Part shown: positions 6,328 to 35,915 of the stretch, piece by piece
How the letters are laid out: every line of letters starts with the position of its first letter
Numbering within the stretch: the stretch's first letter is position 1
Source of the DNA: Desulfobacterales bacterium
GTDB taxonomy: Bacteria > Desulfobacterota > Desulfobacteria > Desulfobacterales > 4be13
DNA length: 35,915 nt
Direction of reading: 5' to 3'
Assembly: GCA_029940115.1 (NCBI GenBank)
Contig: JAOZRQ010000004.1
Location: forward strand, 1-35,915
The notes under the pieces: model-generated
Databases searched by the model: none
What the model saw: only the letters and a program-made list of their open reading frames with translations
What the model was told of the DNA's origin: nothing
Made by a program: the position numbers and the translations under genes

Positions 6328-6760
6328 TGTCATTCCCGCGAAAGCGGGGATCCACTATTGCCAAAACTGTCATTCCCGCTTGCGCGGGAATGACAGGCAC
6401 AGTGGGTTCCCGCTTTCGCGGGAATGACAGGCACAGTGGGGGTTCCCGCTTTCGCGGGAATGACAGGCACAGTGGGGTTCCCGCTTTCGCGGGAATGACA
6501 GGCACAGTGGATTCCCGCTTTCGCGGGAATGACAGGCACAGTGGATTCCCGCTTGCGCGGGAATGACGGGCATACAGCAATTCATAAGTTCGTCACCCCT
6601 TCCGCCGGATTGCCAAATCCGGCGGCTCGGTGCCAATCCGAGCCGAGCGAGGGGTACGAACTTACAAAGTGGTGTAGCAGGTTCCCGCTTACGCGGGAAT
6701 GACAGTGGGTTCGCGGGAATGACAGGCACAGTGAATTCCCGCTTGCGCGGGAATGACATC
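6328..6760. repeat. Tandem array of a hairpin unit of about 35 bp (TTCCCGC-ttyc-GCGGGAA-TGACAGGCACAGTGG), interrupted by a compound nested hairpin at 6586-6672
   Basis: 'ttcccgc' cores start at 6333, 6373, 6407, 6443, 6478, 6512 and 6546, a spacing of 34-40 nt. More copies lie at 6682-6760. The units abut directly with no unique spacers. The inner segment contains 'ccgccggattgccaaatccggcgg' and 'ctcggtgccaatccgag' hairpins, which recur at 22241-22289. Confidence 0.9.
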
Positions 6761-11518: not shown

Positions 11519-12187
11519 ATGACAAATCCCAAAAACGGAGACGCTGTGGAAAAAACCCGGATCATGCCTGAAGAACTCACACCCGGGAACCCCTCCACTG
11601 ACATTCTCGATGAGATTTTGAACCTGTATCCCGGGGGAAAGCAGACCACCCTTGTCAAAACATTGCTCAATCTGGTGTCAACTGCCTCAAAAATTGCCTC
11701 AAAAACCGGTGAAATTCCTTCAAAAGTGGGAAAAACGCTATTCACCTCCCCCGAACAGGATAGAATGTTGCAGGAAGCCGGGGCCTCATTAAGGGATATC
11801 CGGGAAGTGGCTGGCCTGACCGTGAAGGAACTGAGCCAATCCCTCCGATTGCCAGATCAGTCCCTGCTGACCGCGGTGGAAAACGGAACCGCCACCCTCT
11901 CCTTTGAACTCGTCTTGCGACTTGCGGCATTGCTCGCGCGGCATGATCCCCTCCCTTTCATCATCCGATACACCCGGACATACAATCCTGACCTATGGGC
12001 GGTTCTGGAAGATTGGGGGGTGGGGAGGCTACCCATTCACATTGAGCGGGAGCGGCAGTTCATCAATATTTACCGGAGCCGGGATTCGGCAAGAAAACTC
12101 TCCGACGAGGCATTCCAGCAGGTTCTGAAATTCACCCAAGCCGCGTTTGAAATGGCATTGGCATTTGCCACGGAACGTGAAGCGTGA
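11519..12187 (+). CDS. XRE-type helix-turn-helix domain protein
   Basis: An HTH-like segment LRDIREVAGLTVKELSQSLRLPDQSLLTAVENGTATLSFELVLRLAALL is present. An RBS 'ggagaggggg' precedes the ATG. The final codons and the stop lie in the heptamer array. Confidence 0.65.
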   Translation: MTNPKNGDAVEKTRIMPEELTPGNPSTDILDEILNLYPGGKQTTLVKTLLNLVSTASKIASKTGEIPSKVGKTLFTSPEQDRMLQEAGASLRDIREVAGLTVKELSQSLRLPDQSLLTAVENGTATLSFELVLRLAALLARHDPLPFIIRYTRTYNPDLWAVLEDWGVGRLPIHIERERQFINIYRSRDSARKLSDEAFQQVLKFTQAAFEMALAFATEREA

Positions 12188-12340
12188 AACGTGAAGCGTG
12201 AAGCGTGAAGCGTGAAAACTTGGAATACCTACTACGTCTCACGCATCACGGGTCACGCATCACGCATCACGAGTCACGCATCACGGGTCACGCATCACGA
12301 GTCACGCATCACGAGTCACGCATCACGAGTCACGCATCAC
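12174..12340. repeat. Inverted pair of heptamer arrays: (CGTGAAG)n, a spacer, then (nnnTCAC)n
   Basis: 'acgtgaagcgtgaaacgtgaagcgtgaagcgtgaagcgtgaaaac', then a 19-nt spacer, then about 15 heptamers of GCATCAC/GAGTCAC/GGGTCAC. The array ends 20 nt before the ATG at 12361. Confidence 0.9.
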
Positions 12341-12360
12341 GTTAGGAGCAAAAAATAGCC

Positions 12361-13557
12361 ATGTCCGGCAAACACATACTAGTGGCGGAAGATGAGGAAT
12401 ATGTCCGGCTTTCCCTGAGCATCATTCTCAGAAAGTCCGGTTATCGGGTGACGGTTGCTGAAAACGGGCGAAAGGCTCTGGAAAAGGTCATAAAGTTGAG
12501 AAAAACCGCTCAACCCCTTGATCTGCTGATAACAGACATTCAGATGCCGAGCCTCTCCGGATTGGAGCTGATTGATGAACTGGAAAAGCAGGGGATAACC
12601 CTGCCTGTTCTCGCCATAACCGGCTACGGGGACAAGACGCTGGTGGTGGAACTGATGCGCAGGGGCTGTGTGGATTACATTGACAAGCCCTTTGAGCCTC
12701 AGGAACTGCTTGACCGCCTTGACCGGATCTTCAAAAAGAGGAAACAGACAGAACCAGCAGATGGCAGGCGGACGGTTCAGGAGAAAATCAGGCTTGACCG
12801 GCAAATTGATTCATACATACACAATTTTGAAAGACTCCGGAAGCAGATGGACGCCGCGGTCGGGGCTTACCAAGATCTGATCCACATTCGGGAGGGGGGA
12901 TATAATGTCCGGGTGGCCTGCCAACGCAGGCCCTTGGCGGAGCTTGGCGGTGATTTCATGGACATACGGAACACCTCTGCCGGCTGTGACATTCTGATGG
13001 CCGATGTCGCGGGACATGATATGGGCGCGTCTTACCATACGGTTCTGATCAAGGCCTTCTTTGATGAAAACTGCCGCACCGGCAATGATGGAGATTCCTT
13101 CTTCCGCCTTCTCAACAAGCAGCTCATCGAAAACGGCAAAAATGAGCGGATGGTGACAGCCATCTTCCTCCGCCTGAACTTGGAGAGCATGACCGTCGAA
13201 CTGGTTGCCGCGGGACACCCGCCCATGATCAGAATGTTGAAGGAAGCCCCGGATCCGGAGACAATCGTCGCGTTGGGAGATGTGCTCGGCATTTTTGATG
13301 AGGTCGGCTTTGAAAACGTGACGTTTCCCATTGCTTCGGGAGACCGTCTGTTTCTCCACACAGACGGGCTGATCAACGCCTATCGCTTACATGAGCATAC
13401 CCGGAAAAAAGAGAAACTGGGTGCCGAGGGACTGACTCATCTCATAAAAAAATATCATCCGCTTCCCCTTGAAAAGATGATCGGACATATCGGAGAAGAT
13501 CTGTCCACATTCAAATTCAATGATGACATGCTGGTTTTGGGCGTGGAAATCCCATGA
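12361..13557 (+). CDS. Response-regulator receiver fused to a PP2C/SpoIIE-type Ser phosphatase (RsbU-like)
   Basis: Receiver motifs: ILVAEDEEYV, DLLITDIQMPSLSG and DYIDKPF. PP2C motifs: LGGDFMDI, MADVAGHDMGASY and LHTDGL. RBS 'aggag'. Confidence 0.9.
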   Translation: MSGKHILVAEDEEYVRLSLSIILRKSGYRVTVAENGRKALEKVIKLRKTAQPLDLLITDIQMPSLSGLELIDELEKQGITLPVLAITGYGDKTLVVELMRRGCVDYIDKPFEPQELLDRLDRIFKKRKQTEPADGRRTVQEKIRLDRQIDSYIHNFERLRKQMDAAVGAYQDLIHIREGGYNVRVACQRRPLAELGGDFMDIRNTSAGCDILMADVAGHDMGASYHTVLIKAFFDENCRTGNDGDSFFRLLNKQLIENGKNERMVTAIFLRLNLESMTVELVAAGHPPMIRMLKEAPDPETIVALGDVLGIFDEVGFENVTFPIASGDRLFLHTDGLINAYRLHEHTRKKEKLGAEGLTHLIKKYHPLPLEKMIGHIGEDLSTFKFNDDMLVLGVEIP

Positions 13558-13935
13558 CCCGTTGCGACTGAGGAACCCTAACAATGCTCGTCCCCGACAA
13601 AAGACGTCGGGGACAAGGTTCCGGCAGGAGCGGGCAAGCGATTCAGGAAGGGGCGCATTGGAATTGTCCCGAGAATAGCCCGGCCATTCATTGTCGGGGT
13701 GAGTTGACAGAAGCCCCCCGAGTCCCGTGGGGACTGCTGAAAATAGCCCGGCAATTCATTGCCGGGTCGGGCATGCACAATTTGTCCAGTCCGCAGGGAC
13801 GACTGGGGATCCATCCCAAAATGAGTTTCAAGACTGTTTGGGGACTCCCTCAACTTATAAATACGCCCTTCAGGAAGTGGCCGAAACCAAGATCAAATCC
13901 AAGCCGCCAAGGCAAGGGCAGGGACAAGGAAAGCG

Positions 13936-14397
13936 ATGAGAAGAAAAGAGAAAGAGATGACGGACAGGGCCGAAATCGAATCCGTCATCAGAAAGTCACG
14001 GGTCTGCCGGCTGGGACTGGCAGATGAGGGATATCCGTATGTGGTCCCATTATGCTTCGGATATGACGGAAATGCGTTCTATTTTCATTCTGCGAAAGCG
14101 GGCAGAAAAATTGACATGCTCAGAAAAAACAACAGGGTCTGTTTCGAGTTTGACATTGAGCAGGAGACAAAGCCGGCTGAAAAGGCGTGTAAGTGGGGAA
14201 TGGCATACAAGAGCGTGATCGGGTTCGGGGAGGCATCGTTTGTGGAAGATACGGACGCAAAGCGCAACGCCTTGGATATCATCATGCGACAATATTCGGC
14301 AGATGTGCGGCAGTTTGAATATTCGGAAGCCGCATTGAGGGGAACAGTGATTATAAGGATTGATATTCAGGAGATCACGGGGAAAGCTGATGCGTGA
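13936..14397 (+). CDS. Pyridoxamine 5'-phosphate oxidase family (FMN-binding split-barrel) protein
   Basis: RVCRLGLADEGYPYVVPLCFGYDGNAFYFHSAKAGRKIDMLRKNNRVCFEFD is typical of the family. An alternative ATG is at 13957. Confidence 0.8.
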   Translation: MRRKEKEMTDRAEIESVIRKSRVCRLGLADEGYPYVVPLCFGYDGNAFYFHSAKAGRKIDMLRKNNRVCFEFDIEQETKPAEKACKWGMAYKSVIGFGEASFVEDTDAKRNALDIIMRQYSADVRQFEYSEAALRGTVIIRIDIQEITGKADA

Positions 14398-14445
14398 TGG
14401 GTGAATTCACGTTTCACGTCTCACATTTCACGCCTCACGTTTCAG
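14392..14445. repeat. Palindromic heptamer block (GTGAnnn / nnnTCAC) between the PNPOx stop and the hisI RBS
   Basis: 'gcgtgatgggtgaattcacgtttcacgtctcacatttcacgcctcacgtttcag' is centred on 'gtgaattcac'. Confidence 0.8.
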
Positions 14446-14458
14446 AAAAGGAGTCCAA

Positions 14459-14830
14459 ATGATTGAACTTGATTTTGACAAGACAGGGGGGCTGGTTCCC
14501 GCCATTGTTCAGGATTATCAGACCGGAGAGGTTCTGATGCTCGCGTTTATGAACAAGGAAGCATGGGAGGCCACCCTTTCCACCGGCATGGCCACCTATT
14601 ACAGCCGATCACGGCGAGAACTCTGGGTGAAGGGCAAGACTTCCGGACATGTGCAACATGTGAAGGATATCCGAATCGATTGTGATGATGACACGGTCCT
14701 GCTGAAAGTCGAGCAGGTCGGCGCGGCATGTCACATCGGGTATGAAAGTTGCTTTTTCAAGAAAGTCGAGGAGGGGACCCTCAGGGTTGTCGGAAAGCCG
14801 GTGTTTGATCCCAGAGAGGTTTATAAATAA
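14459..14830 (+). CDS. hisI: Phosphoribosyl-AMP cyclohydrolase (monofunctional HisI)
   Basis: [33 protein letters not shown]...[52 protein letters not shown] matches the PRA-CH signature. RBS 'aaaaggag'. Confidence 0.93.
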
Positions 14831-14920
14831 GGGCGATGGGCAAGCGGCGATGGTCCATTTCAGTTTTTTCCTGCATGTCAGCTCTCCTTAATTATATTGG
14901 ATGCGTGACGAGTGATGTTT

Positions 14921-18370: not shown

Positions 18371-18843
18371 AGCAACTTTCGGAGTGGCAGAGTGAGATTC
18401 TTGCTACCTTGTTTACAAGAACACTTGACAACATGATAAAAAAAAGGGCATACTTCAAAAAAGGGGAGGTAAGTACCCGGCCAAAAGTTTTCCGGGATTT
18501 TTCTTGGGAGGACAACTCACAAACCGCGGATGAACCCGTCGTCTGCGTTCATCTGCGGCTCACAATGGGAAGGTTGTCCCTCATATGCAGACACCTGAAA
18601 ACATATGGCCAAGTACTTAGTTTACACTTTCGTCCTTGCCCCGGCAACTCCGCTCCTGCCAGTGATAATGAGAATCGACGGCAACGGGCAATTTACATGA
18701 GGGAGCGAAGATGACCGATGTTCCGCCCTCATATGCGCGGATGAAAGTTCGCCAAGTGCGATTTCAAATCGCATGTGGCGACCTGTTCCGCCCCATATGC
18801 GCGGATGAGAATCCAAGAGGCCATTCATCCTTCATCCTTTTTT

Positions 18844-19011
18844 CTGATTATAACGCTTTTCGGGGAGGCCGCCTGCCCGTGAACGTGCACGTGAACGTGA
18901 ACTTGAACGTGAATGTTCATTTGTGGGCAAGTTCGAGTTCAAGTATAAGTTCACGTTCAAGTTCACGTTCAAGTTCGAGTTCAAGGCCTCCCCTAAATCC
19001 GTTATAATCAG
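18844..19011. mobile_element. MITE-like element (CTGATTATAACG termini, GTGAAC/GTTCAC hexamer stem) with an 8-bp flanking direct repeat
   Basis: Termini are 'ctgattataacgcttttcggggaggcc' and 'ggcctcccctaaatccgttataatcag': 12 matching bases, a 6-nt mismatch block, then 9 matching bases. The flanks 18836-18843 and 19012-19019 are both 'cctttttt'. The interior is (GTGAAC)n, a loop, then (GTTCAn)n. Confidence 0.85.
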
Positions 19012-19114
19012 CCTTTTTTCACATAAGGTTTTCACATAAGGAGCCAAGATGACGATGTTCCGCCCCAAGAGGCCGTTCATCCTTCATCCTTCATAATTTA
19101 CAAAGGGGTATATC

Positions 19115-21040: not shown

Positions 21041-21135
21041 ATCCAATAAATTCAGTCAACAGAAAAAACTTGATAGTTGAGTGTAAGGATGAAGGCTTTA
21101 ATCCTTCATGTTTCATCCTTCACCCTTCATGTTTC

Positions 21136-21258
21136 CTGATTATAACGCTTTTCGGAGAGGCCGCCCTGCCCATGAACGTGAACTTGAACGTGAATGTGAA
21201 TGTTCATTTGTGGGCAAGTTCAAGTATAAGTTCACGTTCACGTTCAATGCCTCCCCTT
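21136..21258. mobile_element. Truncated MITE-like element (hexamer-stem family). The left terminus is intact; the right terminus is lost next to the regulator stop codon.
   Basis: 'ctgattataacgcttttcggagaggcc', then GTGAAC-type hexamers, a loop, GTTCAC-type hexamers and 'gcctcccct'. The 'aaatccgttataatcag' end is absent. Confidence 0.7.
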
Positions 21259-22289: not shown

Positions 22290-22699
22290 CGGGCGTGGGC
22301 CGGGATGTTGTTTGGTCATGGTTCCTTGGCAATGGTCCTGATTCTAACGGATTTTGTGTTTGCATGTGGTCACGATCCTGGAAGCCGGTCTGGGGACAGC
22401 CTGCCGCAACAATCCCCACAAACCGTGGATGGACGCTGACGAGCCTCGGCACACAGGCCATCCGCGTTCATCCGCGGATCACCATTCTCAGCTCATGTCG
22501 GAAACCACAAAAACCGTCAGAACCAAGTTCATTCAGAAAAAAGCCGGGTTTCTGGCCGAGGTGGGACACCGCAAAAGGCCGGTGTCAGCCCACAGATTGA
22601 TATTTTTTTGTTGGCCCATGTTCACTTACTTGAATAGAGGAACAGAACAAGGAAATCAATGGGGTGGGGGGAGTATTGAAAGGTGGGAATATCCTACCT

Positions 22700-22838
22700 G
22701 AAGGATGAAGTTTGAAGGATGAAGGATGAGGGATGAAGTTTGAAGGATGAAGTTTGAAGGATGAAGTTTGAAGGATGAGGGATGAAGTTTGAGGGATGAA
22801 GTTTGAAGGATGAAGGATGAGGGGTGAAGTTTGAAGAT
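22700..22838. repeat. Heptamer tandem array (GAAGGAT/GAAGTTT/GAGGGAT), about 20 units
   Basis: A direct read shows strict 7-nt periodicity. A short inverted counterpart 'catcatccttcacctttcaccttc' lies at 22934-22957, next to the regulator stop. Confidence 0.9.
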
Positions 22839-22957
22839 GACTTTGGAAAGAACAGGGGGAACTTTCCGACCTTTTTCCAAGTTGATTTGAGGAGTCATTC
22901 GCCATTAATCAGGATATCCCAAAAGATAGAACGCATCATCCTTCACCTTTCACCTTC

Positions 22958-23647: not shown

Positions 23648-23965
23648 CAAACTCACAAAACTCACAAAACTCACAAAACTCACAAAACTCACAAAACTCT
23701 CAAAACTCAAAAACTCTCAAAACTCTCAAAACTCTCAAAACTCTCAAAACTCTCAAAACTCACAAAACTCAAAAACTCACAAAACTCAAAAACTCACAAA
23801 ACTCTCAAAACTCAAAAACTCATAAAACTCACAAAACTCACAAAACTCTCAAAACTCACAAAACTCACAAAACTCTCAAAACTCTCAAAACTCTCAAAAC
23901 TCTCAAAACTCATAAAACTCTCAAAACTCAAAAACTCTCAAAACTCTCAAAACTCTCAAAACTCC
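23648..23965. repeat. Nonamer tandem array (ACTCACAAA/ACTCTCAAA with occasional 8-nt ACTCAAAA units), about 35 units, filling the kinase-regulator spacer
   Basis: The direct read is continuous from just upstream of the regulator RBS to 2 nt before the kinase stop codon (23968-23970). It translates as KTH/KLS/NSQ or SFV repeats in the open frames. Confidence 0.95.
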
Positions 23966-26938: not shown

Positions 26939-26986
26939 GAGGATGAAGAATGAAGTTTGAAGAATGAAAGATGAAAGGAAACGCAG

Positions 26987-27742
26987 ATGAAGCTCGCAAT
27001 CAGCGGCAAGGGAGGCGTCGGCAAGACCACCCTCGCCGCCCTGCTCGCACGGACATACAGCCAGCAAGGCAGGCAAGTCCTCGCCATAGATGCGGATCCC
27101 GACGCCAATCTCGGAGCCGCGCTCGGAATTGAGGGGGCGGACCAGATGATCCCAATATCCGAGATGAAGGATCTCATATATGAGCGGACAGAGGCAAGAC
27201 CCGGGACCATCGGCGGCTTCTTCAAGCTGAACCCCAAAGTGGATGATCTGCCCGAAGCGTTGACCGTGAAGCATGAGAACATCCGTCTCATGCGGCTCGG
27301 GGGGATCAAAAAAGGGGGGGCCGGTTGCATCTGCCCCGAAAGCACCCTTCTGAAGGCACTCGTCACTCACATTGTGCTGGCGAGGGATGAGGTGGTGGTC
27401 ATGGACATGGAGGCCGGCATCGAGCATCTCGGCAGGGCCACCGCCCGGGCAGTGGACCCCCTGATCGTCGTGGTGGAGCCGGGCCGCCGCAGTCTGGAGA
27501 CAGCCGGACACATCCGAAAGCTCGCGAATGAGATCGGATTGCCGAACATCGCGGTGGTGGGAAACAAAATCCGAGGGCAGGCGGACCAAGACTTCCTGGA
27601 GACGCACCTCCCCGATTTCAGATTTCTCGGATTCCTGCCATATGACGACGCGTTCATCGAAGCCGACCTCAGGGGATGCTCGCCGTATGACACCCCATCC
27701 CCCGCAAAGGCCCAAGTTGAAAAGATGCTCTGCAAGCTGTAA
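26987..27742 (+). CDS. cooC: CooC/AcsF-type nickel-insertion ATPase (MinD/ParA superfamily)
   Basis: The deviant Walker A is KLAISGKGGVGKTTLAALLA. The CooC-type CxC motif is 'GAGCICPE'. The length of 251 aa is typical. Confidence 0.85.
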   Translation: MKLAISGKGGVGKTTLAALLARTYSQQGRQVLAIDADPDANLGAALGIEGADQMIPISEMKDLIYERTEARPGTIGGFFKLNPKVDDLPEALTVKHENIRLMRLGGIKKGGAGCICPESTLLKALVTHIVLARDEVVVMDMEAGIEHLGRATARAVDPLIVVVEPGRRSLETAGHIRKLANEIGLPNIAVVGNKIRGQADQDFLETHLPDFRFLGFLPYDDAFIEADLRGCSPYDTPSPAKAQVEKMLCKL

Positions 27743-27758
27743 GCGACTTACAGCTTGC
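27732..27758 (+). terminator. Perfect 12-bp stem-loop overlapping the cooC stop codon; terminator or RNA-stability hairpin candidate
   Basis: 'gcaagctgtaag' (27732-27743), loop 'cga', 'cttacagcttgc' (27747-27758). No T-run follows. Confidence 0.4.
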
Positions 27759-27764
27759 AAATTG

Positions 27765-27826
27765 CAACTTACAGCTCACAGCTCACAGCTCACAACTTAC
27801 AGCTCACAACTCACAACTTACAGATT
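27765..27826. repeat. Heptamer array (TTACAGC/TCACAGC/TCACAAC) just upstream of the helicase start
   Basis: Direct read: 'aacttacagctcacagctcacagctcacaacttacagctcacaactcacaacttacag'. Confidence 0.85.
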
Positions 27827-27837
27827 ACCGCTTGATT

Positions 27838-29997
27838 ATGCACAGAAAAGATGCCACGCGGCGCACCCCATACAGAAGAACCCGCAAAAAAAAGGCCGAG
27901 GCCCCCAAGATACCCAAAATCAGACCCGGTGCCCATCCCGAACTGAAAAAGGTCTTCGGGACCGTCGGCATACCGGAGAAGACGGCTTTCACCCCTGATC
28001 CCTTCCAGATGGCCGCGGTCGAAGCCGTTGAGAAGGGGGACTGCCTCGTCACCGCACCGACCGGGGCCGGCAAGACCTGGATCGCGGAACAGGCCATCGC
28101 CCGAATCCGGGAAAAAGGGGGGAGATCCTGGTACGCGTCCCCCCTCAAAGCCCTGAGCAACTCGAAATACGCCGAGTTCTGCGAGATATTCGGCGTCAAC
28201 AACGTCGGCATTCTCACCGGCGACCGAAAGGAGAAACCCCGAGCGTCCCTGATCGTCGGAACCACGGAAATCCTGCGCAATCAGCTCTATGACGCCATGA
28301 GCCGCGGGGAGGACCTCGCGGCCGACTTCGTCATCCTCGACGAGGCCCATTTCCTCGGAGACCCCGACAGGGGCGTGGTATGGGAGGAAATCATGATCTA
28401 CCTCCCCGCCCGCATCCCCCTCCTCATGCTTTCGGCAACCATCGGAAACGCGGACCAGATCGCCGGCTGGCTCTCGGAAATGCGGGAAAAGGAATGCATC
28501 GTGGTCCAGGAGACCTGCCGACCCGTGCCCCTGTATCCGATATTCTTCCACCCTTCGGGTACCCTGCTCCCTCTCCTCTCGGAGAGCGACGAGGAGACCC
28601 AAAGCTCTCCCCGACATCCTTCATCTCGGGGGTCTCGGGGAAAGGCATCGGGGAAGCTCCACAAGAAGGTCGACGCGCACATCACCGACAAGAACCCCTC
28701 CGTGCTCGCCGCGGACCGGAGCCTGCCCCCCCTCGGCAGAATACTCGAGGTGCTGAAGTCCTTCCACCTGACCCCCGCCATCTTCTTTCTCAAGTCACGG
28801 GCCGACTGCGACCATGCCCTCAGCCTCTGCAAGACCCCTCCCCCGGATGACGACCGGAAGCAGAGGCGCAGCCTGAGAATCCGGGATCTCGCCTCGCAAA
28901 GCGGGCACATCGCCAACCATCGCCACCTCTGGGAGATCGAGAACCTCGCGGCCGCATCCCATCACAGCGGTCAGCTCCCCGCGTGGAAGCTCGTGATCGA
29001 GTCCCTCATGACCGATGGCCTCCTCGACGTGGTCTTCGCCACCTCCACCGTGGCCGCGGGTGTCAACTTCCCGGCCCGCACCATCGTGTTCCTCAACTCG
29101 GACCGGTTCAACGGCAAGGAGTTTCTCCCCCTCAGTCCCACCGAGTTTCATCAGATGACCGGAAGGGCCGGCCGCCGAGGGATGGACAAGATCGGCTTTG
29201 CGGTCGCCATTCCGGGAAGATTCATGGATGTCCGTCTCATCGCCCGGCTCACCAGCGCCTCCCCCTCCCATGTGTTGAGCCAGATCAAGATCAACTTCTC
29301 CATGGTGCTGAACCTGCTCCTCTCCCACTCTCCGGACCAGATTGAGGAGATCCTGAAAAAATCCTTTGCCACTTATATGATCGTGAAGGGGAAGCGCACC
29401 CGCAAGGCCCAGCGCCTCATCGGAAACGAGCACAGGCTCCTCTGGCAGAACTTCCTCAACCACTTCCACTTCCTCCGGGAGTCCGGATATGTCACCGAGG
29501 CCGGCGATCTCACCCCTGACGGCGTCTGGGCCTCCCAGCTTCGGGTGGATCAGCCCTTGATGATCGCCGAGGGGTTCCGGCTCGGCGTCTTTCCCGACGC
29601 GGACCCCGCCCTCCTTGCTGCCGTGATCGCCTCCCTCGTGAACGAGGAGGAGTCCAACGACCGGATCCCCAAGCGGCAGATTCCCGATGCCCTGCTCAGG
29701 ACCATGCTCCATGTCCGAAAGGGGCTCAGACCCTTTGCCAAGCAGATGATCCTGAATGGTTTCGAGCCACGGGTCCTCTTCCTCCGCCCTGCCCTCACCC
29801 TATACGCGTGGGCCATGGGGTCTGAATGGGAGGATCTGCTCGCGTTTTCCGAAATGGCCGAAGGGAACCTCGCCATGCTCATCTTTCGCACCGCCGACAA
29901 CCTCAGACACATCCGGGCCCTCGACCATGTGTTCCCAAAAGCCGCCGCCACCGCCGCCCGAGTCATCGAACAGATCATCCGGGACCCGGTCATCTGA
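27838..29997 (+). CDS. Ski2-like (HelY/Mtr4-type) DExH-box SF2 helicase with a basic N-terminal extension
   Basis: Motif I is TAPTGAGKTWIAE, motif II is ILDEAHFLGD, motif III is LSATIGN and motif VI is HQMTGRAGRRGMD. The C-terminal region has the Ski2 arch/DSHCT-like length. ATG at 27838 is preferred over the TTG at 27832. No obvious RBS. Confidence 0.85.
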   Translation: MHRKDATRRTPYRRTRKKKAEAPKIPKIRPGAHPELKKVFGTVGIPEKTAFTPDPFQMAAVEAVEKGDCLVTAPTGAGKTWIAEQAIARIREKGGRSWYASPLKALSNSKYAEFCEIFGVNNVGILTGDRKEKPRASLIVGTTEILRNQLYDAMSRGEDLAADFVILDEAHFLGDPDRGVVWEEIMIYLPARIPLLMLSATIGNADQIAGWLSEMREKECIVVQETCRPVPLYPIFFHPSGTLLPLLSESDEETQSSPRHPSSRGSRGKASGKLHKKVDAHITDKNPSVLAADRSLPPLGRILEVLKSFHLTPAIFFLKSRADCDHALSLCKTPPPDDDRKQRRSLRIRDLASQSGHIANHRHLWEIENLAAASHHSGQLPAWKLVIESLMTDGLLDVVFATSTVAAGVNFPARTIVFLNSDRFNGKEFLPLSPTEFHQMTGRAGRRGMDKIGFAVAIPGRFMDVRLIARLTSASPSHVLSQIKINFSMVLNLLLSHSPDQIEEILKKSFATYMIVKGKRTRKAQRLIGNEHRLLWQNFLNHFHFLRESGYVTEAGDLTPDGVWASQLRVDQPLMIAEGFRLGVFPDADPALLAAVIASLVNEEESNDRIPKRQIPDALLRTMLHVRKGLRPFAKQMILNGFEPRVLFLRPALTLYAWAMGSEWEDLLAFSEMAEGNLAMLIFRTADNLRHIRALDHVFPKAAATAARVIEQIIRDPVI

Positions 29998-30078
29998 AGG
30001 ATTAAGGGCTAAGGGCTAAGGGATTAAGGGTTAATCCCTAACCCCTTAACCCTTCATCCCTAACCCCTTAATCCTTCT
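29998..30078. repeat. Inverted heptamer arrays, (TAAGGGC)n and (TAACCCC)n, forming a hairpin between two convergent genes
   Basis: 'attaagggctaagggctaagggattaagggttaatccctaaccccttaacccttcatccctaaccccttaatcc'. The central stem 'agggattaa' / 'ttaatccct' has 9 bp. The right arm encodes the last residues (..KGLGMKG) and the stop of the 30046 gene. Confidence 0.85.
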
Positions 30079-31965
30079 AAGAGCCAGTTCCACAATCCGG
30101 TTGATCAGACGGGCGATGTCCCAAGTTGAGGCGGGGTCGAGTTCCGCGGCACCCAAGGCCGGGATCACCGCCTTGTCGCCGAAAATGTCATACTCCCGGG
30201 TGTGGAACGAGCGGATCGGGTCCACCCCGCGGGCATCCTCCTTCGGATGAAACAGGTAAAGGGAGATCACTGGCGACTGCCCCCCCTTCTTTCCGCTGAT
30301 GCCATGGACATAGCGCATCACCAGCATCGGAAGCTTCTCAAAGAAGACCGTGTCCGGCGGAGAGTACTTCGCGTCAAACACCGCAAGCAGACACGCGCCG
30401 GATCCGGCCCCCCGATCCTCCCGAATCTCGAAGATGTAATCCGGCACCCGCTTCGCATTGGCCCCCTTCCTGCGGTACGACTCCCACACCCACCCCTCCA
30501 CATTGAAGTGGCGATCCTCACCAGAGCCGCCATGCCTCGGGGACCATATCTCCTTCTCATAGCAAAGGGTCAGGGAGACGTGGCCTCTGCGGAACTCGTA
30601 TCGGTGGCGGGGGCGAGGAGCGAGGAGCGAGGAGTCGGGGGACGGGGCCGGTTCCTCCCCTTGCCCCTCAGCCTCACCCTGACGTCGGAACCCCGCCTTC
30701 TCAAGCCCGTCAATCAGGCGGTACAGACAGAAGTATTCATACAGCTCGTCAATCGAGCGGACCCCTGCCAAGGCCTCCTCATCGGACCAGTCCGCACTCC
30801 CCATCTGATACCAGCGGATGATCTTCTCAAAGAGCACCCGATAATGGGCATTCGCCTTGACCCAAGGGGTCATGGAGGGGGCCGACGACATCAGCCGGCC
30901 GACCGGGATCCGCTCCTCCGCGACGCTCATCAGGTAGTTGCACCGCTCCAGCATCCGGTCGCACTTCGTCTTCCGGCCCCTGAACAGTTCCCGCATGGAC
31001 GTCTTGATCTCCCTTGAGAAGCTCACATACCTCCCCGCATCCCCGTGCCGCCCCTTCCCTTCATCCGTATGCCAAGCGTCCGGATCCGGCCCTTGGGACT
31101 CGATCCGGTCACACGCCTTCCGAATCTCCACGAGAAACGTCTTGATGTTGTTCAGAAAGCTGTGCAACACCCGATTCTCATACACATCGCTGTCCTCAAC
31201 CAGTTCGCTCACCTCCAGCCGGCTCGCGGTGTAGGCCCGGTTGTCAATCACCGCGACCGCCTCGTCAGGCATGGCTGCCGGGACCAGGATGTCGAGATGG
31301 GAGAGGAGCCACTCCGCCGTGTTCGCGTCAAAGCAGTCCCCAGGCCTTGGCATCCGCACCACCCGTCGCGGCACCAGCCGGGTGCAGTGCTTTCCCAAAA
31401 GAACCGGCAGATGCCGCTCAAACAGGACCAGCCCCTCCTCGGCCTCCTTCATCAGCGTCGTCACATTCCGCCGCTGCTTTCCCGCGGACACTTGGGTCAC
31501 GCTGAAGATCGACCCCGGCAGGTCATCCATCCGGGACGCCAGATAGGAGATGATCTCCCGAAGCCGGTCCGCCGTGATCTTCCTCGCCCTCACCTCAAAG
31601 GGCCGCAGCTCGATCCAGAGCCGGCCCCCGTCCTTTCGCCTCACCTCCACATCCAACTGGCAGGAGCCAAAACAGTTCAGAAAGAAGGCCTGATATCGGT
31701 TGAACCCCCTCGACTCCGGATGCCAGAGATAGATCACCTTGTTGCTCAACCGCTTGCAATCCGACGGCGGCTTGGGCAGATCCGAAATCCAGAGCACCGG
31801 ATTCTCCATGTATGCCGGTGCCACAAGCATGAAGCAGATCTCCTCATCCTCCTGAATCCAAGCGCACGGCGCCGCCTTGGTCAGCTCCTCCTGAGGGGGG
31901 ATCTCAATCCGCTCCCCCTGCCTCGCGCCGGCCAGCACCTTGATGTAAAATCTGAAATCTTCCAT
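30046..31965 (-). CDS. McrC-like partner protein: DUF2357-like central region plus a C-terminal PD-(D/E)xK nuclease motif
   Basis: C-terminal 'VPDYIFEIRED...ACLLAVFDAKYS' (nt about 30364-30450) fits D...(D/E)xK. The gene lies 98 nt downstream of, and is co-directional with, the McrB-like NTPase. ATG at 31965 is preferred because the track start (GTG at 32019) is encoded by heptamer repeats. The start remains uncertain. Confidence 0.7.
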   Translation of the reverse strand: MEDFRFYIKVLAGARQGERIEIPPQEELTKAAPCAWIQEDEEICFMLVAPAYMENPVLWISDLPKPPSDCKRLSNKVIYLWHPESRGFNRYQAFFLNCFGSCQLDVEVRRKDGGRLWIELRPFEVRARKITADRLREIISYLASRMDDLPGSIFSVTQVSAGKQRRNVTTLMKEAEEGLVLFERHLPVLLGKHCTRLVPRRVVRMPRPGDCFDANTAEWLLSHLDILVPAAMPDEAVAVIDNRAYTASRLEVSELVEDSDVYENRVLHSFLNNIKTFLVEIRKACDRIESQGPDPDAWHTDEGKGRHGDAGRYVSFSREIKTSMRELFRGRKTKCDRMLERCNYLMSVAEERIPVGRLMSSAPSMTPWVKANAHYRVLFEKIIRWYQMGSADWSDEEALAGVRSIDELYEYFCLYRLIDGLEKAGFRRQGEAEGQGEEPAPSPDSSLLAPRPRHRYEFRRGHVSLTLCYEKEIWSPRHGGSGEDRHFNVEGWVWESYRRKGANAKRVPDYIFEIREDRGAGSGACLLAVFDAKYSPPDTVFFEKLPMLVMRYVHGISGKKGGQSPVISLYLFHPKEDARGVDPIRSFHTREYDIFGDKAVIPALGAAELDPASTWDIARLINRIVELALRRIKGLGMKG

Positions 31966-32063
31966 GATATGAAGGATGAAGGATGAAGTCTGAAGTCTGA
32001 AGGATGAAGTCTTCATCACTCATCCCTCATCTCTCATCCCTCATCCTTTCCTTTCGCCCGTTG
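31966..32063. repeat. Inverted heptamer arrays (GAAGGAT/GAAGTCT versus TCATCCC/TCATCTC) filling the spacer between the McrB-like and McrC-like genes
   Basis: 'gatatgaaggatgaaggatgaagtctgaagtctgaaggatgaagtcttcatcactcatccctcatctctcatccctcatcc' is centred on 'gaagtcttc'. Confidence 0.85.
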
Positions 32064-34469
32064 TCAGCTGAAAAATGAGTAAGAGTTGTGAGTCTGTTTC
32101 CCGGCCTCAATAATGCGGCGGAGAATCCTCGCGGAGCGATAGAGGGAGTTGTCGGTGGTCACCTCCAAGAGCTTCTCGAGCCGCCTGCCAAACCCGGTTC
32201 CGTATCCCTCGATCATCGGAAGGATGAACTGGGCCGTCGCGAAGTCAATCGCCTGGTCATTGACAAGGATGTCCCTCGCAATCGTGCAGTAACGTCTGAT
32301 GGCATAGTATTTCCTCGGACTGATCACCACAAAGGACGCGCCATCAAAGTCGGACGTCTCGGTCTGGAGAATCTCGATGATCTCCTTCACGATCTCCGCC
32401 TCCTTGCTCGCAAAATCCTCCTCATCGGAACCCGCGAAGAATGCCTGCATCCTCTCAAAGAGAAGCGCCCCGTCGGGCCTCATCCGGTTGCTGCTCAACG
32501 GATTCGAATACTCATAGCTCGGCTCCATCTGGATCACCGGAACCCGGTCGATCAGTCGGGGGGAGAGCCGCTCGGTGGTGTTGTCGTTGTTCACCGTGCC
32601 AATGAACCGCACAGATGGGCCGACATGGAGGAACCGATCCTTGTCGAGACAGCCGGTGTCGAGGTTCCGCTCCCCCTCGGGATCGCACATCCCGAGAAAG
32701 TCGGCCCAATAATGCTCAATTGGCGACAGGTTCGCCTCGTCGAGCAGCACCCAGCGGGAAAACCGGCCGACCTGCGGGTCGGTCCGGGTGAGATGGAGAA
32801 AGTCGTACAACCCGGTCCTCGCCTTCTGATATTGGCTCCGAAGCGGATTGAAATACCCGAGTATGTCCCGCTGGGACGTCCACCCCCGGGAGACCGGGAT
32901 TTTGAGCAGATTCTCCGAATTCCCCAATGCCTCCCCGAGATAATGGATCACCGACGTCTTGCCAGTGCCCGGCGGGCCGGCGAGTATGGTCAGAAAGCTC
33001 TGCTGCATGCAGATCAGCAGGTTGGCGATCTCGTCCGATGTGTAGTTTCTCCCGCACTGCTCCACCAGATATTCCCGGATTTTGTCCACAAAGTCCTTCC
33101 GATTCCCGTCAAACTCCCTCACCGCAGGCATGGCGACACCTGACTCGCCATCATCCCTCTCCTCCAATGTGTAGCTGCCGTTGAGCAGGTCCAAATACGT
33201 CTTGATCTCCGTGAGCCTCTCTTTGATGTCCTCTGCCTTCAGTCTCTTTATCTCGGTCTCGATCTTCTTCTTGTTCAGCTTCATGAATTCAATCTCTTTG
33301 TACAGGTTCTCCGCCTGTATCAGCTTCCCGATTCTCTCCTCCAACGCCCGGAGTTCCCGGGTGCGCTCCTCCTCATATCGCGTCTTCTCCTCCTTCTTCC
33401 TCTTGTCGAGCTCCTCGATCTCCCGGTTGAGCTGGTCCTTCTGGGCCCGGAGGAAATAGAGCTCCCGCCTGATCTTCACCGCCTCCTTCTCGGCCCTTTC
33501 CTCTATGTGCTTCAGATGATCCTTGAAAAACTTCTCCTTGTTGTCCTGCAAATACTGCTCCACAATCACGCGGCCCTCGGTCTCGTTGGTCAGGAAGTTG
33601 TTGATGAACGAGGCCTGCTGCACACCGGCCTCGAGTATCTTCGGCATCAGGCGGATCAGCCGGTCCCTCCGCTCCTGATCCATGCCGGTGAGGTGCTTCA
33701 GGTTTTTGATCGCCTCAAGCCACTCGGTCACGGTCTTCCGATTCAGTTTCGCTGTCCCGGATCGGAGCAGATACTTGTTCCCCCATGTCACCAGCCGGTC
33801 GTCGGAGATGTAGTCCTGCTGCTCATACGCCGCCGCCTTCAGCAGGTTGGTGTTGAACAGATACGCGACCGGCGGCCGGCTCAGGCTGCTTTTCAGGGTC
33901 TCGAACTCGATGATGTAGTGTCGCACCTCCTCGGTCCTCACCTTGAACACATGGTCGGGCCGGAGTCCGAGCAACGGCGACTGGGCCGCACTCAGCCGGA
34001 TCCCCTCGTCATCCTTTGTCCATTCAAACGGGCCATAGATGCTTGTGCCGTCGTTGACAAAGACCGAACGGTTCGGCAGGGGCCCCCCGGAACTCAGATA
34101 GGGCCGCTCCACGTCCGGCAACGGCTCCTTGATGATGGGACAGAGCTCGAATCGCTTCAGCGCCTCCGCATCCGATCCCCTCATCCAGTATTTCTCAAGA
34201 TAGTCGTTCTCTATGTATGCCTCATTCTCATCCGCACTGTAGCGGTTCACCCGGAAAAACTCATGGTCGGAAAACCGCCGGTCTATCGCCTCGTATTCGC
34301 TCGACACCCAAATCCGGCCGTTGTTCGGAAAATCGCAACGATCCGCCGGGGCATACGTGCTGTTCTCCAACTCATGGGCTATGGGTATCACAAACCCGCC
34401 GCTCGTTGAGATGGGACGGTCCTTCAACGCCAGCAAGGGCTTGAACTCATTCATCTTCGTTCTCTCCAT
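32064..34469 (-). CDS. McrB-like AAA+ (AAA_5) NTPase with a long N-terminal coiled coil and an unassigned N-terminal domain
   Basis: Walker A is ILAGPPGTGKTS (about 32953-32980) and Walker B is WVLLDEANLSPIEHYWADFL (about 32729-32750). 'RFIGTVNNDNTTERLSPRLIDRV' (about 32560-32610) is also present. The preceding K/E/R-rich heptad region runs from EERAEKEAVKIRRELYFLRAQKDQLNREIEELDKRKKEEKTRYEEERTRELRALEERIGKL to IKERLTEIKTYLDLL (about 33185-33510). ATG at 34469 has 'ggaga' 8 nt upstream. An alternative ATG is at 34454. The track start at 34538 lies in repeats. Confidence 0.8.
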   Translation of the reverse strand: MERTKMNEFKPLLALKDRPISTSGGFVIPIAHELENSTYAPADRCDFPNNGRIWVSSEYEAIDRRFSDHEFFRVNRYSADENEAYIENDYLEKYWMRGSDAEALKRFELCPIIKEPLPDVERPYLSSGGPLPNRSVFVNDGTSIYGPFEWTKDDEGIRLSAAQSPLLGLRPDHVFKVRTEEVRHYIIEFETLKSSLSRPPVAYLFNTNLLKAAAYEQQDYISDDRLVTWGNKYLLRSGTAKLNRKTVTEWLEAIKNLKHLTGMDQERRDRLIRLMPKILEAGVQQASFINNFLTNETEGRVIVEQYLQDNKEKFFKDHLKHIEERAEKEAVKIRRELYFLRAQKDQLNREIEELDKRKKEEKTRYEEERTRELRALEERIGKLIQAENLYKEIEFMKLNKKKIETEIKRLKAEDIKERLTEIKTYLDLLNGSYTLEERDDGESGVAMPAVREFDGNRKDFVDKIREYLVEQCGRNYTSDEIANLLICMQQSFLTILAGPPGTGKTSVIHYLGEALGNSENLLKIPVSRGWTSQRDILGYFNPLRSQYQKARTGLYDFLHLTRTDPQVGRFSRWVLLDEANLSPIEHYWADFLGMCDPEGERNLDTGCLDKDRFLHVGPSVRFIGTVNNDNTTERLSPRLIDRVPVIQMEPSYEYSNPLSSNRMRPDGALLFERMQAFFAGSDEEDFASKEAEIVKEIIEILQTETSDFDGASFVVISPRKYYAIRRYCTIARDILVNDQAIDFATAQFILPMIEGYGTGFGRRLEKLLEVTTDNSLYRSARILRRIIEAGKQTHNSYSFFS

Positions 34470-34486: not shown

Positions 34487-34670
34487 TTGAAGGATGAAGG
34501 GATGAAGGATGAAGGATGAAGGATCCTTCACATTTCATCCTTCATCCTTCATATTTCATCCTTCACATTTCATCCTTCACATTTCATCCTTCATCCTTCA
34601 TATTTCATCCTTCATATTTCATCCTTCATATTTCATCCTTCACATTTCATCCTTCATATTTCATCCTTCT
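34487..34670. repeat. Inverted heptamer arrays: (GAAGGAT)n for 37 bp, then about 21 units of TCATCCT/TCACATT/TCATATT
   Basis: The palindromic centre is 'gaaggatccttc' at about 34515-34528. The right arm runs to 34670 and encodes the last residues (EKDEI) and the stop of the 34654 gene. Confidence 0.9.
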
Positions 34671-35355
34671 CATCAGATGCCTTGTAGATATCAATGATCT
34701 TGGTGCTTTCGATATAGTCACGGGTCTCATATTTGGTGATCCGCATCAGTTTCTTGGTGATCCTTCCCATCTTGTCTATCTGATCCTTGATTATTGAAAT
34801 GTATTCATATCGGGGATCATCCATGGTCATGTCATCCATCAGGAGCTGGGAAAACCCGAGCACGGACTGCATCGGCTGGTTGAGCTCATGGCAGACTGCG
34901 CCCGCCATTTCAAGAACCCCCTCAAGCTTCTCCTCCTCAAGCAACTTCCTCGTCAGCTCCTGTTGCGTCAGGGCCGACTTGATTCTTGCAAGCAATTCCA
35001 CTTTGTTGACCGGCTTTCTCACATAATCGGTTCCACCTGCCTCAAAGGCCTCCTGCAATGTGTGGTCATCGGTGTTCGCCGTGACAAAGACAACCGGGAT
35101 GTCCTTTGTCTCGGGCTTGCCACGAAGAATTCGGCAAACCTCATACCCGTCCATTTCGGGCATCATGATGTCGAGCAGAATCAGATCCGGAATCCCGCAC
35201 ATGTCCGTCCTTGACGTGGCGATCTCAAGGGCCTCGGATCCGCTCACGGCAACGCTGATCTCGTAAGTGCCGGCCAGTATCTCCACCAGCACCCGGATGT
35301 TCGCGGGCGCGTCGTCAACGATGAGAATGTTTGGCCTTTTCAAATTTTCACCCAT
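34654..35355 (-). CDS. Response-regulator receiver fused to a HisKA-like (DHp) domain, with no catalytic ATPase domain
   Basis: Receiver motifs: ILIVDDAPANIRVL, DLILLDIMMPEMDGYEV and DYVRKPV. The C-terminal H-box-like segment is MAGAVCHELNQPMQSVLGFSQLL. ATG at 35355 has the RBS 'ggaagga'. The track start at 35481 reads through GGGCAC repeats (GHGVGHGHGQGHG). Confidence 0.85.
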   Translation of the reverse strand: MGENLKRPNILIVDDAPANIRVLVEILAGTYEISVAVSGSEALEIATSRTDMCGIPDLILLDIMMPEMDGYEVCRILRGKPETKDIPVVFVTANTDDHTLQEAFEAGGTDYVRKPVNKVELLARIKSALTQQELTRKLLEEEKLEGVLEMAGAVCHELNQPMQSVLGFSQLLMDDMTMDDPRYEYISIIKDQIDKMGRITKKLMRITKYETRDYIESTKIIDIYKASDEKDEI

Positions 35356-35359
35356 TTTT

Positions 35360-35477
35360 CCTTCCCCGTGCCCCTGCCCGTGCCCGTGCCCGACCCCGTG
35401 CCCTGCCCCTGCCCGGTGTCGGGCAGAGGCAGGGGCACAGGCAAGGGCAGGGGAAAGGGCACGGGCAAGGGGCACGG
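35360..35477. repeat. Long imperfect palindrome of CGTGCCC/GGGCACG-type repeats between the STAS and receiver-DHp genes
   Basis: 'ccccgtgcccctgcccgtgcccgtgcccgaccccgtgccctgcccctgcccg', loop 'gtgt', then 'cgggcagaggcaggggcacaggcaagggcaggggaaagggcacgggcaaggggcacgg'. Confidence 0.85.
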
Positions 35478-35783
35478 TCATCTCGACATGATGAAGATGG
35501 TGTCCAGTTTCAGCATCTTGAACAGTTCAGAGACGGCCTCTGACATGTTTTCGATTCTTATCTCTCCTCCTCTCAGGGCGAGATCCTTGTAAAACAGCAA
35601 CAGCTTTCCAATGCCCGCGCTGCCGATGTGGGAGACCTTTCCAAAATCAAGGGTCAGTTCCTTCAGTGAGGACATGTTCAATTCACGAAAGCGGCGTTTG
35701 AGGATTTCGGATCCAGATTCATCTATCTTCCCCGCGACCACAAATTTTGCCCGCTCTCCCTCCTGAGTGATGGTCAATTCCAT
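35478..35783 (-). CDS. STAS-domain protein (SpoIIAA/RsbV-type anti-sigma-factor antagonist)
   Basis: LTLDFGKVSHIGSAGIGKLLLFYKDL follows the STAS pattern and has a candidate phospho-Ser in 'SHIGSAG'. ATG at 35783 lies 6 nt after 'ggag'. An upstream ATG at 35795 is also possible. Confidence 0.8.
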   Translation of the reverse strand: MELTITQEGERAKFVVAGKIDESGSEILKRRFRELNMSSLKELTLDFGKVSHIGSAGIGKLLLFYKDLALRGGEIRIENMSEAVSELFKMLKLDTIFIMSR

Positions 35784-35795
35784 GATAAGCTCCAT

Positions 35796-35915
35796 GTTTG
35801 GAAGGGTGAAGGGTCCATTTCATCCTTCATCCTTCACGTTTCATCCTTCACGTTTCATCCTTGATCCTTCACGTTTCATCCTTCACGTTTCATCCTTCAC
35901 GTTTCATCCTTCACG
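35796..35915. repeat. Heptamer array (TCATCCT/TCACGTT) upstream of the STAS gene, running off the window edge
   Basis: Direct read: 'catttcatccttcatccttcacgtttcatccttcacgtttcatcc...' with 7-nt periodicity. Confidence 0.9.

Follow-up and report, generated by a model that had tools for sequence, protein, structure and literature searches.

A pair of adjoining genes, here called B and C, on contig JAOZRQ010000004.1 (assembly GCA_029940115.1) of a Desulfobacterales bacterium very probably forms an intact two-gene system of the McrBC family, resembling Type IV restriction, that belongs to the NxD/CoCoNuT clade and has the architecture of Type I-C. The window referred to throughout is the whole stretch of DNA that was analysed, namely positions 1 to 35,915 of the forward strand of this contig (35,915 nucleotides, nt). 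This assignment is supported directly by the family membership of both proteins, their intact motifs, the conservation of the B-to-C operon and the mobile, patchy distribution of the pair, while from homology we infer the stoichiometry of the hexamer with C, the nucleotide used, the target and a role in defence. Among the best 80 of 373 loci with a relative of B (scan of one genome per species), at least 70 have the whole B-C architecture together with the N-terminal region of B, and the pair therefore joins a class described computationally in 2024 and is not a new kind of system. An earlier sequence-only reading of this DNA had proposed a McrBC/CoCoNuT-class pair with a novel sensor. The class has stood, but the novelty has not, as the family is abundant, was described in 2024, and has this N-terminal region as a standard component.

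The gene pair

Both genes lie on the minus strand with a spacer of 98 nt, an arrangement already noted in the sequence-only reading and borne out by the listing of open reading frames (ORFs).

32064-34469, minus strand: gene B, CnuB/McrB-like nucleoside triphosphatase (NTPase), 801 amino acids (aa); ORF with an N-terminal beta-rich region, a coiled-coil and an AAA+ NxD-type NTPase
30046-31965, minus strand: gene C, CnuC/McrC-like protein, 639 aa; ORF

The chosen starts, MERTKMNEF at 34469 for B and MEDFRFYI at 31965 for C, fit the N-termini of relatives in the alignments. Both ORFs are full length and possess all of the catalytic and signature residues conserved across 75 homologues, and the motifs quoted earlier were all found, these being the P-loop, Walker B and sensor of B and the PD...DAK of C. 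No family matches were obtained for the large antisense ORFs inside B and C. The DNA of the window is from a relative of Desulfonema, with the closest homologues in Desulfobacterales bacterium HSG2, Desulfococcaceae bacterium HSG8 and Desulfonema magnum. Overall, the window is ordinary chromosome, with genes for RecJ, glutamate dehydrogenase, histidine kinases and a cyclase, and neither tRNA genes nor an integrase were found in it.

The AAA+ NTPase of protein B

The C-terminal half of B carries the following features.

32067-33101, minus strand: AAA+ NTPase core and lid, B residues 457-801 (aligns to McrB residues 197-440; Foldseek AAA+ matches include McrB 6ut6_C and 6hz4_D)
32952-32978, minus strand: Walker A GPPGTGKTS, B residues 498-506 (G498, P500, G501, G503, K504 and S506 invariant)
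32727-32747, minus strand: Walker B LLDEANL, B residues 575-581 (D577, E578, N580 and L581 invariant)
32583-32591, minus strand: NxD signature (sensor-1), N627-N-D629 (N627 and D629 invariant)

Among 77 homologues of B, the Walker A motif follows the family-wide pattern GxPGxGKTS, Walker B reads LDEANLSP in 65, and the form N[NYH]DxTTE occurs at the sensor in 70. The sensor region of B is F622-IGTVNNDNTTERLSPRLIDR, in which N627-N-D629, with the context GTVN-N-D-NTTE, stands where McrB reads N-T-A-D. This shortened NxD signature defines the McrB clade that holds the coiled-coil CoCoNuT systems (Bell et al., PMC11090510). From L581 to N627 there are 45 residues, and the alignment to McrB has no large insert here.

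Whether the NTPase belongs with McrB or with the MoxR/dynein-type families had been set out beforehand as a check on the assignment. An hhalign comparison of the family profile of B with E. coli McrB (96%, E 3.9e-9) gives an alignment of 228 columns that takes in Walker A, Walker B and the sensor, whereas the MoxR-type control, E. coli RavA, is matched over just 33 columns at the P-loop (30%). With BLASTP, B also matches the Type I-A CnuB fragment from the supplement of PMC11090510 (E 2e-21), with an identical order of motifs. Judged by these alignments, B is McrB-like, not MoxR-like. The PADLOC model PDC-M26A gives a partial match to B (3.2e-36, profile positions 152-428 of 724).

The alternative, that B is a chaperone-like AAA+ ATPase of the MoxR/dynein/Lon type and that the pair lies outside the restriction-type systems, can draw on several less specific searches. 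The best Pfam matches of B are generic (AAA_18 and the 'dynein-related' AAA_5, the latter at 3.5e-5), a phmmer search against the PDB returned a Lon fragment as its sole match (E 0.001), and the Foldseek matches of B have Lon, dynein and BrxL at the top, intermixed with McrB and MoxR. This intermixing across AAA+ families means that the fold search does not discriminate in the case of B, and its ranking comes from a full-length AlphaFold model of moderate quality (pLDDT, the predicted local distance difference test, 67.5). Against this alternative, it is the whole AAA+ module of McrB that is aligned by profile, published CnuB agrees in its NxD signature and in having LDEANLSP at Walker B, and the obligatory neighbour of B is a nuclease of McrC fold. 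A chaperone-like B is thus considered extremely unlikely.

The McrC-like nuclease, protein C

For C, an exhaustive profile search yielded 735 representatives, 120 of these at E<=1e-30, and 75 members were aligned. With the family alignment as input, the AlphaFold model of C is confident (pLDDT 88.5; pTM, the predicted template modelling score, 0.83), and the protein is divided as follows.

31585-31965, minus strand: Ig-like beta-sandwich, C residues 1-127 (model strands 5-127; Foldseek sub-matches NPC2, LAIR-1 and RhoGDI 1ajw)
30766-31572, minus strand: McrC N-terminal (DUF2357-like) domain, mixed helical/beta, C residues 132-400 (McrC fold match; Y262-E263-N264 invariant)
30052-30753, minus strand: PD-(D/E)xK nuclease domain, C residues 405-638 (model and invariant residues; PDDEXK_7 in relatives)
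30439-30441 (D509) and 30367-30375 (D531-A-K533), minus strand: catalytic candidates of C, together with E410 (invariance)

The motif of C reads VP508-D509-YIFEI ... VFD531-A-K533-Y, and E410, P508, D509, D531 and K533 are invariant across the 75 sequences. A resemblance of the beta-sandwich to RhoGDI has been reported for the CnuC proteins of Types I-B and I-C (Bell et al., PMC11090510). The Pfam DUF2357 match to C of the window is weak and below threshold (residues 96-289, E 0.013), and among the aligned relatives PDDEXK_7 was detected in 36 and DUF2357 in 34. Sequence searches of C against the PDB gave nothing. By fold, the only PDB matches at E<=1e-3 are the McrC chains 6ut7_G, 6hz4_M and 6ut6_G (E 6.6e-8 to 8.8e-5), which are from the McrBC complexes of Thermococcus gammatolerans and E. 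coli. The partner had been expected to have a nuclease fold and, with McrC chains as its sole significant fold matches and invariant PD-(D/E)xK residues, C agrees with that expectation. It is confidently predicted from the model to be a protein of McrC fold made up of a beta-sandwich, a DUF2357-like domain and a PD-(D/E)xK domain.

The N-terminal region and coiled-coil of protein B

Ahead of the NTPase, B possesses two further parts.

33804-34469, minus strand: beta-rich N-terminal region, B residues 1-222, with sub-domains at ~10-90 and ~110-220 (AlphaFold secondary structure, pLDDT ~65-85)
33180-33542, minus strand: K/E/R-rich heptad coiled-coil segment, B residues 310-430 (composition, heptad score, predicted helix)

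The sequence-only reading had described a K/E/R-rich, heptad-like region at 33185-33510, which is essentially residues 310-430 of B, and its description holds well. K, E and R make up 49% of this segment against 25% of the whole protein, it scores 0.44 for hydrophobicity at the heptad positions a/d, a value reached by 0 of 500 shuffles (0.28+-0.05), and a long continuous helix is predicted over residues 311-391 by AlphaFold.

It had also described a region before the coiled-coil without recognisable motifs, and had proposed a novel sensor domain for the pair. The first part of this is correct for the first ~220 residues of B, for which no match was found in Pfam, NCBIfam or PDB sequence searches. 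Profiles of eight and of 67 sequences were both negative against the PDB, as was a word-indexed homologue search, and with hhalign no match was found to CspA and no profile similarity to the N-termini of Type I-A CnuB. The region is, however, kept across the family, with <5% gaps in 75 homologues, and so it is no novelty of this locus. Residues 1-222 are presumed to be the target-recognition module.

Distribution and genomic context

Gene neighbourhoods were taken from the best 80 of the 373 loci. All of these match near-full-length B, including its N-terminal 220 residues, at 27-35% identity, and they are found in Gamma- and Betaproteobacteria, Desulfovibrionales, Bacteroidota, Chloroflexota, Armatimonadota, Saccharibacteria and Bacillota. 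The gene immediately after B is C in at least 70 of them, the two mostly abutting or overlapping. No third gene is conserved family-wide and no third family recurs in the 80 loci, with the pair having no CnuA, CnuH helicase or CnuE/HEPN partner. Recurrent neighbours of the B-C pairs are tyrosine integrases, rve transposases, a D5-type primase and an SNF2 helicase.

Relatives of B were also found in 274 plasmid records, near full length in 14 of them, while none was found in phage genomes. Annotations of the pair on plasmids of Citrobacter and Klebsiella read 'AAA family ATPase' and 'DUF2357 domain-containing protein' or 'hypothetical protein', and integrases and insertion sequence (IS) elements lie alongside it. 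The Enterobacterales version is present on hundreds of contigs, including those of E. coli and Yersinia, and this layout of two genes is frequent in Yersinia, Citrobacter, Klebsiella, E. coli, Xenorhabdus and Pseudomonas. None of the five published Type I-C accessions was among the clusters examined for the Enterobacterales version. The distribution is mobile and patchy, which is the pattern expected of a self-contained two-gene module.

Homologues of B without an adjoining C were seen in HSG8 (L002/L008) and P0013 (L004); in HSG8 an antitoxin-like gene, a DDE transposase and other genes stand in place of C. There is also a distant B-like protein located beside MutS, again without C. A UvrD-family helicase gene lies just 3′ of C on the Citrobacter plasmid NZ_CP056253.1 (10729-12237) and in D. 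magnum (12743-14881), but not at most loci; its presence may be due to chance, or it may sometimes serve as an accessory.

Weighing the assignment

A number of points weigh against the assignment. To the moderate model and intermixed fold matches of B given above can be added that CSD/OB or YTH folds were not recovered for its N-terminal region by the sequence methods tried. For C, neither the narrow profile nor that of 75 sequences aligned significantly with E. coli McrC by sequence, and PADLOC matches C with no model, as is also the case for four other members of the family. The placement in the sub-type follows architecture, not phylogeny. In the Desulfonema-like lineage the pair occupies a fixed chromosomal position surrounded by signalling and housekeeping genes, with no recognisable defence island. 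Finally, experimental support for any Type I CoCoNuT was not found in the literature searched. In favour of the assignment, phage resistance from a cloned Type II CoCoNuT was reported in 2025 (PMC12735699), the only CoCoNuT for which that literature gives a defence role.

It could also be supposed that the pair is a decaying or inactive remnant, as the close relative HSG8 has lost C and as the 98-nt hairpin spacer uncouples B and C, which are abutting genes elsewhere. Both ORFs are nevertheless full length, the residues conserved in 75 homologues are all present, and five relatives retain both genes intact, making decay very unlikely. An intact McrBC-family system remains the reading preferred here.

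The REC-HisKA neighbour in the Desulfobacterales

Upstream of B the window has two small genes with apparent signalling functions.

34654-35355, minus strand: REC-HisKA protein, 233 aa, receiver and DHp domains with no ATPase domain (Pfam Response_reg 6.5e-27, HisKA 8.1e-11)
35478-35795, minus strand: STAS protein, further upstream of B than REC-HisKA

The REC-HisKA gene is directly upstream of B on the same strand both in the window and in seven of seven Desulfobacterales relatives, with gaps of 42-184 nt. In the relatives, a REC-PP2C(SpoIIE)-HATPase_c_2 protein usually precedes STAS and REC-HisKA, and the last two look like a partner-switching/phosphorelay module. Identities to the clade relatives are 78-86% for REC-HisKA, 74-80% for B and 62-72% for C, the three diverging roughly in step. 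Synteny stops right after C in every clade genome, the gene 3′ of C being the Ski2-like helicase in the window, UvrD in D. magnum, a beta-propeller/cohesin protein in HSG2 and a DHH-CBS protein in L011. D. magnum retains the REC-HisKA-B-C block despite its different flanks otherwise. Some other NxD systems are known to have two-component genes in their operons, and Type I-B CnuA carries a REC domain (Bell et al., PMC11090510). REC-HisKA is a possible regulator of the pair. As a separate observation, a (CCCGTG)n hexamer array (35365-35475) separates the STAS and REC-HisKA genes.

A stronger version of this idea is that in the Desulfonema/Desulfococcaceae the pair is the output of a signalling unit running from REC-HisKA to B to C, usually after STAS and the REC-PP2C-kinase. 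Phosphorelay input would then license or repress the nuclease machine, whose function would be a regulated and possibly domesticated one in stress, dormancy or self-targeting. The constant position of REC-HisKA, the parallel divergence, the end of synteny after C, the three-gene block kept in D. magnum under a differing upstream flank and the two-component links elsewhere in the NxD clade all favour it. However, the linkage is limited to one clade of fairly close relatives and may be inherited synteny only, and REC-HisKA is absent from all of the 70+ other B-C loci. In addition, 80 metagenomic loci with distant REC(-HisKA) relatives hold neither B nor C, the GC content at third codon positions (GC3) in the window is 0.79-0.80 for B and C against 0.675 for REC-HisKA, large hairpin arrays lie between the genes, and HSG8 retains REC-HisKA and B with C lost. 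A dedicated signalling unit is therefore regarded as doubtful. If it were true, a Type I-C-like CoCoNuT held at one chromosomal position across genera of the filamentous Desulfonema/Desulfococcaceae lineage, its genes set apart by lineage-specific hairpin arrays, would be a signal-gated McrBC-type nuclease, acting either as a regulated immune effector or as a domesticated system on the cell's own RNA/DNA under stress.

Proposed mechanism and significance

McrBC itself is a GTP-dependent hexamer whose hydrolysis is stimulated by McrC and which cleaves modified DNA. By homology with the solved McrBC complexes, the McrBC-family pair would work as follows. B would form a hexameric ring through its AAA+ domain, into which the DUF2357 domain of C would insert and stimulate hydrolysis of nucleoside triphosphate. 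Projecting on its coiled-coil stalk, the N-terminal part of B would recognise a nucleic-acid feature of an invader, and the nuclease of C, with its E/D/D-x-K site intact, would then cleave the target. The substrate may be modified DNA, or RNA, the latter having been proposed for CoCoNuTs (Bell et al., PMC11090510), and the nucleotide may be GTP or ATP.

Very little of the large CoCoNuT branch of McrBC has been tested by experiment, and the locus adds a member from the Desulfobacterota. The enterobacterial and plasmid orthologues, annotated only as 'AAA family ATPase' and 'DUF2357 protein', are directly testable in standard hosts, while the clade-specific linkage to REC-HisKA gives a tangible starting point for studying the regulation of such systems.

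Heptamer hairpins and the adjacent helicase

The sequence-only reading had placed the pair next to a helicase and between brackets of heptamer-repeat hairpins. Tandem Repeats Finder (TRF) and fold predictions locate these as listed below.

29997-30077: heptamer array where C and the convergent helicase gene meet at their 3′ ends, hairpin (TRF; fold -54.6 kcal/mol, z -6.6)
31969-32046: B-C spacer with inverted heptamer arrays TCATCCC / ATGAAGG, hairpin (TRF; RNA fold -41.9 kcal/mol, z -5.0)
34488-34673: heptamer array between REC-HisKA and B, hairpin (TRF; fold -53.3 kcal/mol, z -7.3)
12176-12341, 14406-14444, 18824-19094, 21101-21246, 22699-22956, 26943-26975, 27750-27823 and 35818-35915: the remaining heptamer arrays of the window (TRF)
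27832-29997, plus strand: superfamily 2 (SF2) helicase, 721 aa, with DSHCT (Ski2/Mtr4-type) C-terminal domain and Hel308-like similarity (library profiles)

Both elements of that setting are present, the hairpins with z of -5 to -7.3, but the helicase is not conserved beside the pair and the hairpins are not particular to it. Inverted heptamer arrays were identified by TRF in most intergenic gaps of the window and, as arrays of the same kind fill these gaps, they do not mark the B-C module. In the B-C gaps of four relatives (L009, L011, L012 and L013) hairpins are found at the same boundary with unrelated heptamers, so that the hairpin structure is conserved at this gene boundary and its sequence is not. 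The two genes abut or overlap in other phyla. The heptamer hairpins are a genome-wide feature.

The helicase shows broad, weak matches to PADLOC helicase models (HamB, PDC-M23B). It was considered as a part of the system and rejected, being convergent to the pair and adjoining it in no relative.

Other features of the window

The block 26987-34469, comprising a ParA/CooC-like gene, the Ski2-like helicase, C and B, has a GC3 of 0.75-0.81 against 0.48-0.73 for the other genes of the window. In the relatives, B, C and REC-HisKA are similar in GC3.

An AAA_21 (AbiEii/OLD-like) ATPase gene on the plus strand (2361-3410) has a GC content of 0.42 and a GC3 of 0.49, markedly below its neighbours, and was possibly acquired horizontally. 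It was considered as a counterpart of the AAA_21 gene near the orphan B of HSG8, and this was rejected, the two being unrelated.

Two further repeats and a putative small RNA (sRNA) are also worth mentioning. At 6373-6572 there is a 34-nt unit repeated 5.8 times without spacers, which has an internal palindrome (TTCCCGC...GCGGGAA), and at 23649-23964 a 9-nt unit, AAACTCACA, is repeated approximately 36 times. On the minus strand, 13721-13766 matches the Rfam Acido-Lenti-1 sRNA with 40.7 bits, the gathering score being 37.

Comparison with known systems

With EcoKMcrBC and the McrBC of Thermococcus gammatolerans, the pair shares the AAA+ core over 228 columns, the McrC fold, the order of B followed by C and the PD...D-x-K motif. 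These systems differ in having NxxD where B has NxD, and a 5-methylcytosine-binding domain in place of the coiled-coil and unrelated N-terminus seen here. C is also nearly twice the length of McrC, with an extra beta-sandwich, and its profile alignment to E. coli McrC is not significant.

The PADLOC candidate system PDC-M26 is alike in that its A model extends in B over the coiled-coil and into the NTPase, of which the first half is matched. As mentioned, that match covers only positions 152-428 of 724, and C is unmatched, which leaves the pair outside PDC-M26.

Like Type I-A, the pair has an NxD NTPase with an N-terminal coiled-coil, and the first half of the NTPase is 32% identical (E 2e-21). 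Type I-A CnuB differs in possessing a helical insert of >100 residues between Walker B and NxD, compared with the 45 residues found here, and in N-terminal regions unlike those of B, while Type I-A CnuC has CoCo-CSD-CoCo and ZnR additions.

Type I-B offers a precedent for a receiver domain tied to a Type I CoCoNuT, suggesting phosphorylation-dependent control. In that type, however, REC is fused to a separate PYD/CARD-coiled-coil protein (CnuA) and CnuB is without a coiled-coil, whereas here REC is fused to DHp (HisKA) in a separate small protein found in one clade only.

The Type I-C CoCoNuTs (Bell, Sahakyan, Makarova, Wolf & Koonin, eLife 2024, PMC11090510) differ from the pair in two respects, these being the fixed upstream REC-HisKA gene of this lineage and the hairpin-filled B-C spacer, neither of which is mentioned in that paper. 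For Type I-C CnuB a CSD-like OB fold and a YTH-like domain are described at the N-terminus, neither of which was recovered for B by the sequence methods tried. Type I-C consists of two genes only, CnuB and CnuC, and it is mainly found in Pseudomonadota but scattered widely. Its CnuB has a beta-rich N-terminus, invisible to HHpred-type searches, followed by a coiled-coil and an NxD NTPase in which Walker B and NxD have no insert between them, and its CnuC has an Ig-like, RhoGDI-like beta-sandwich, a McrC_N/DUF2357 domain and an intact PD-DxK nuclease, as do B and C of the window.

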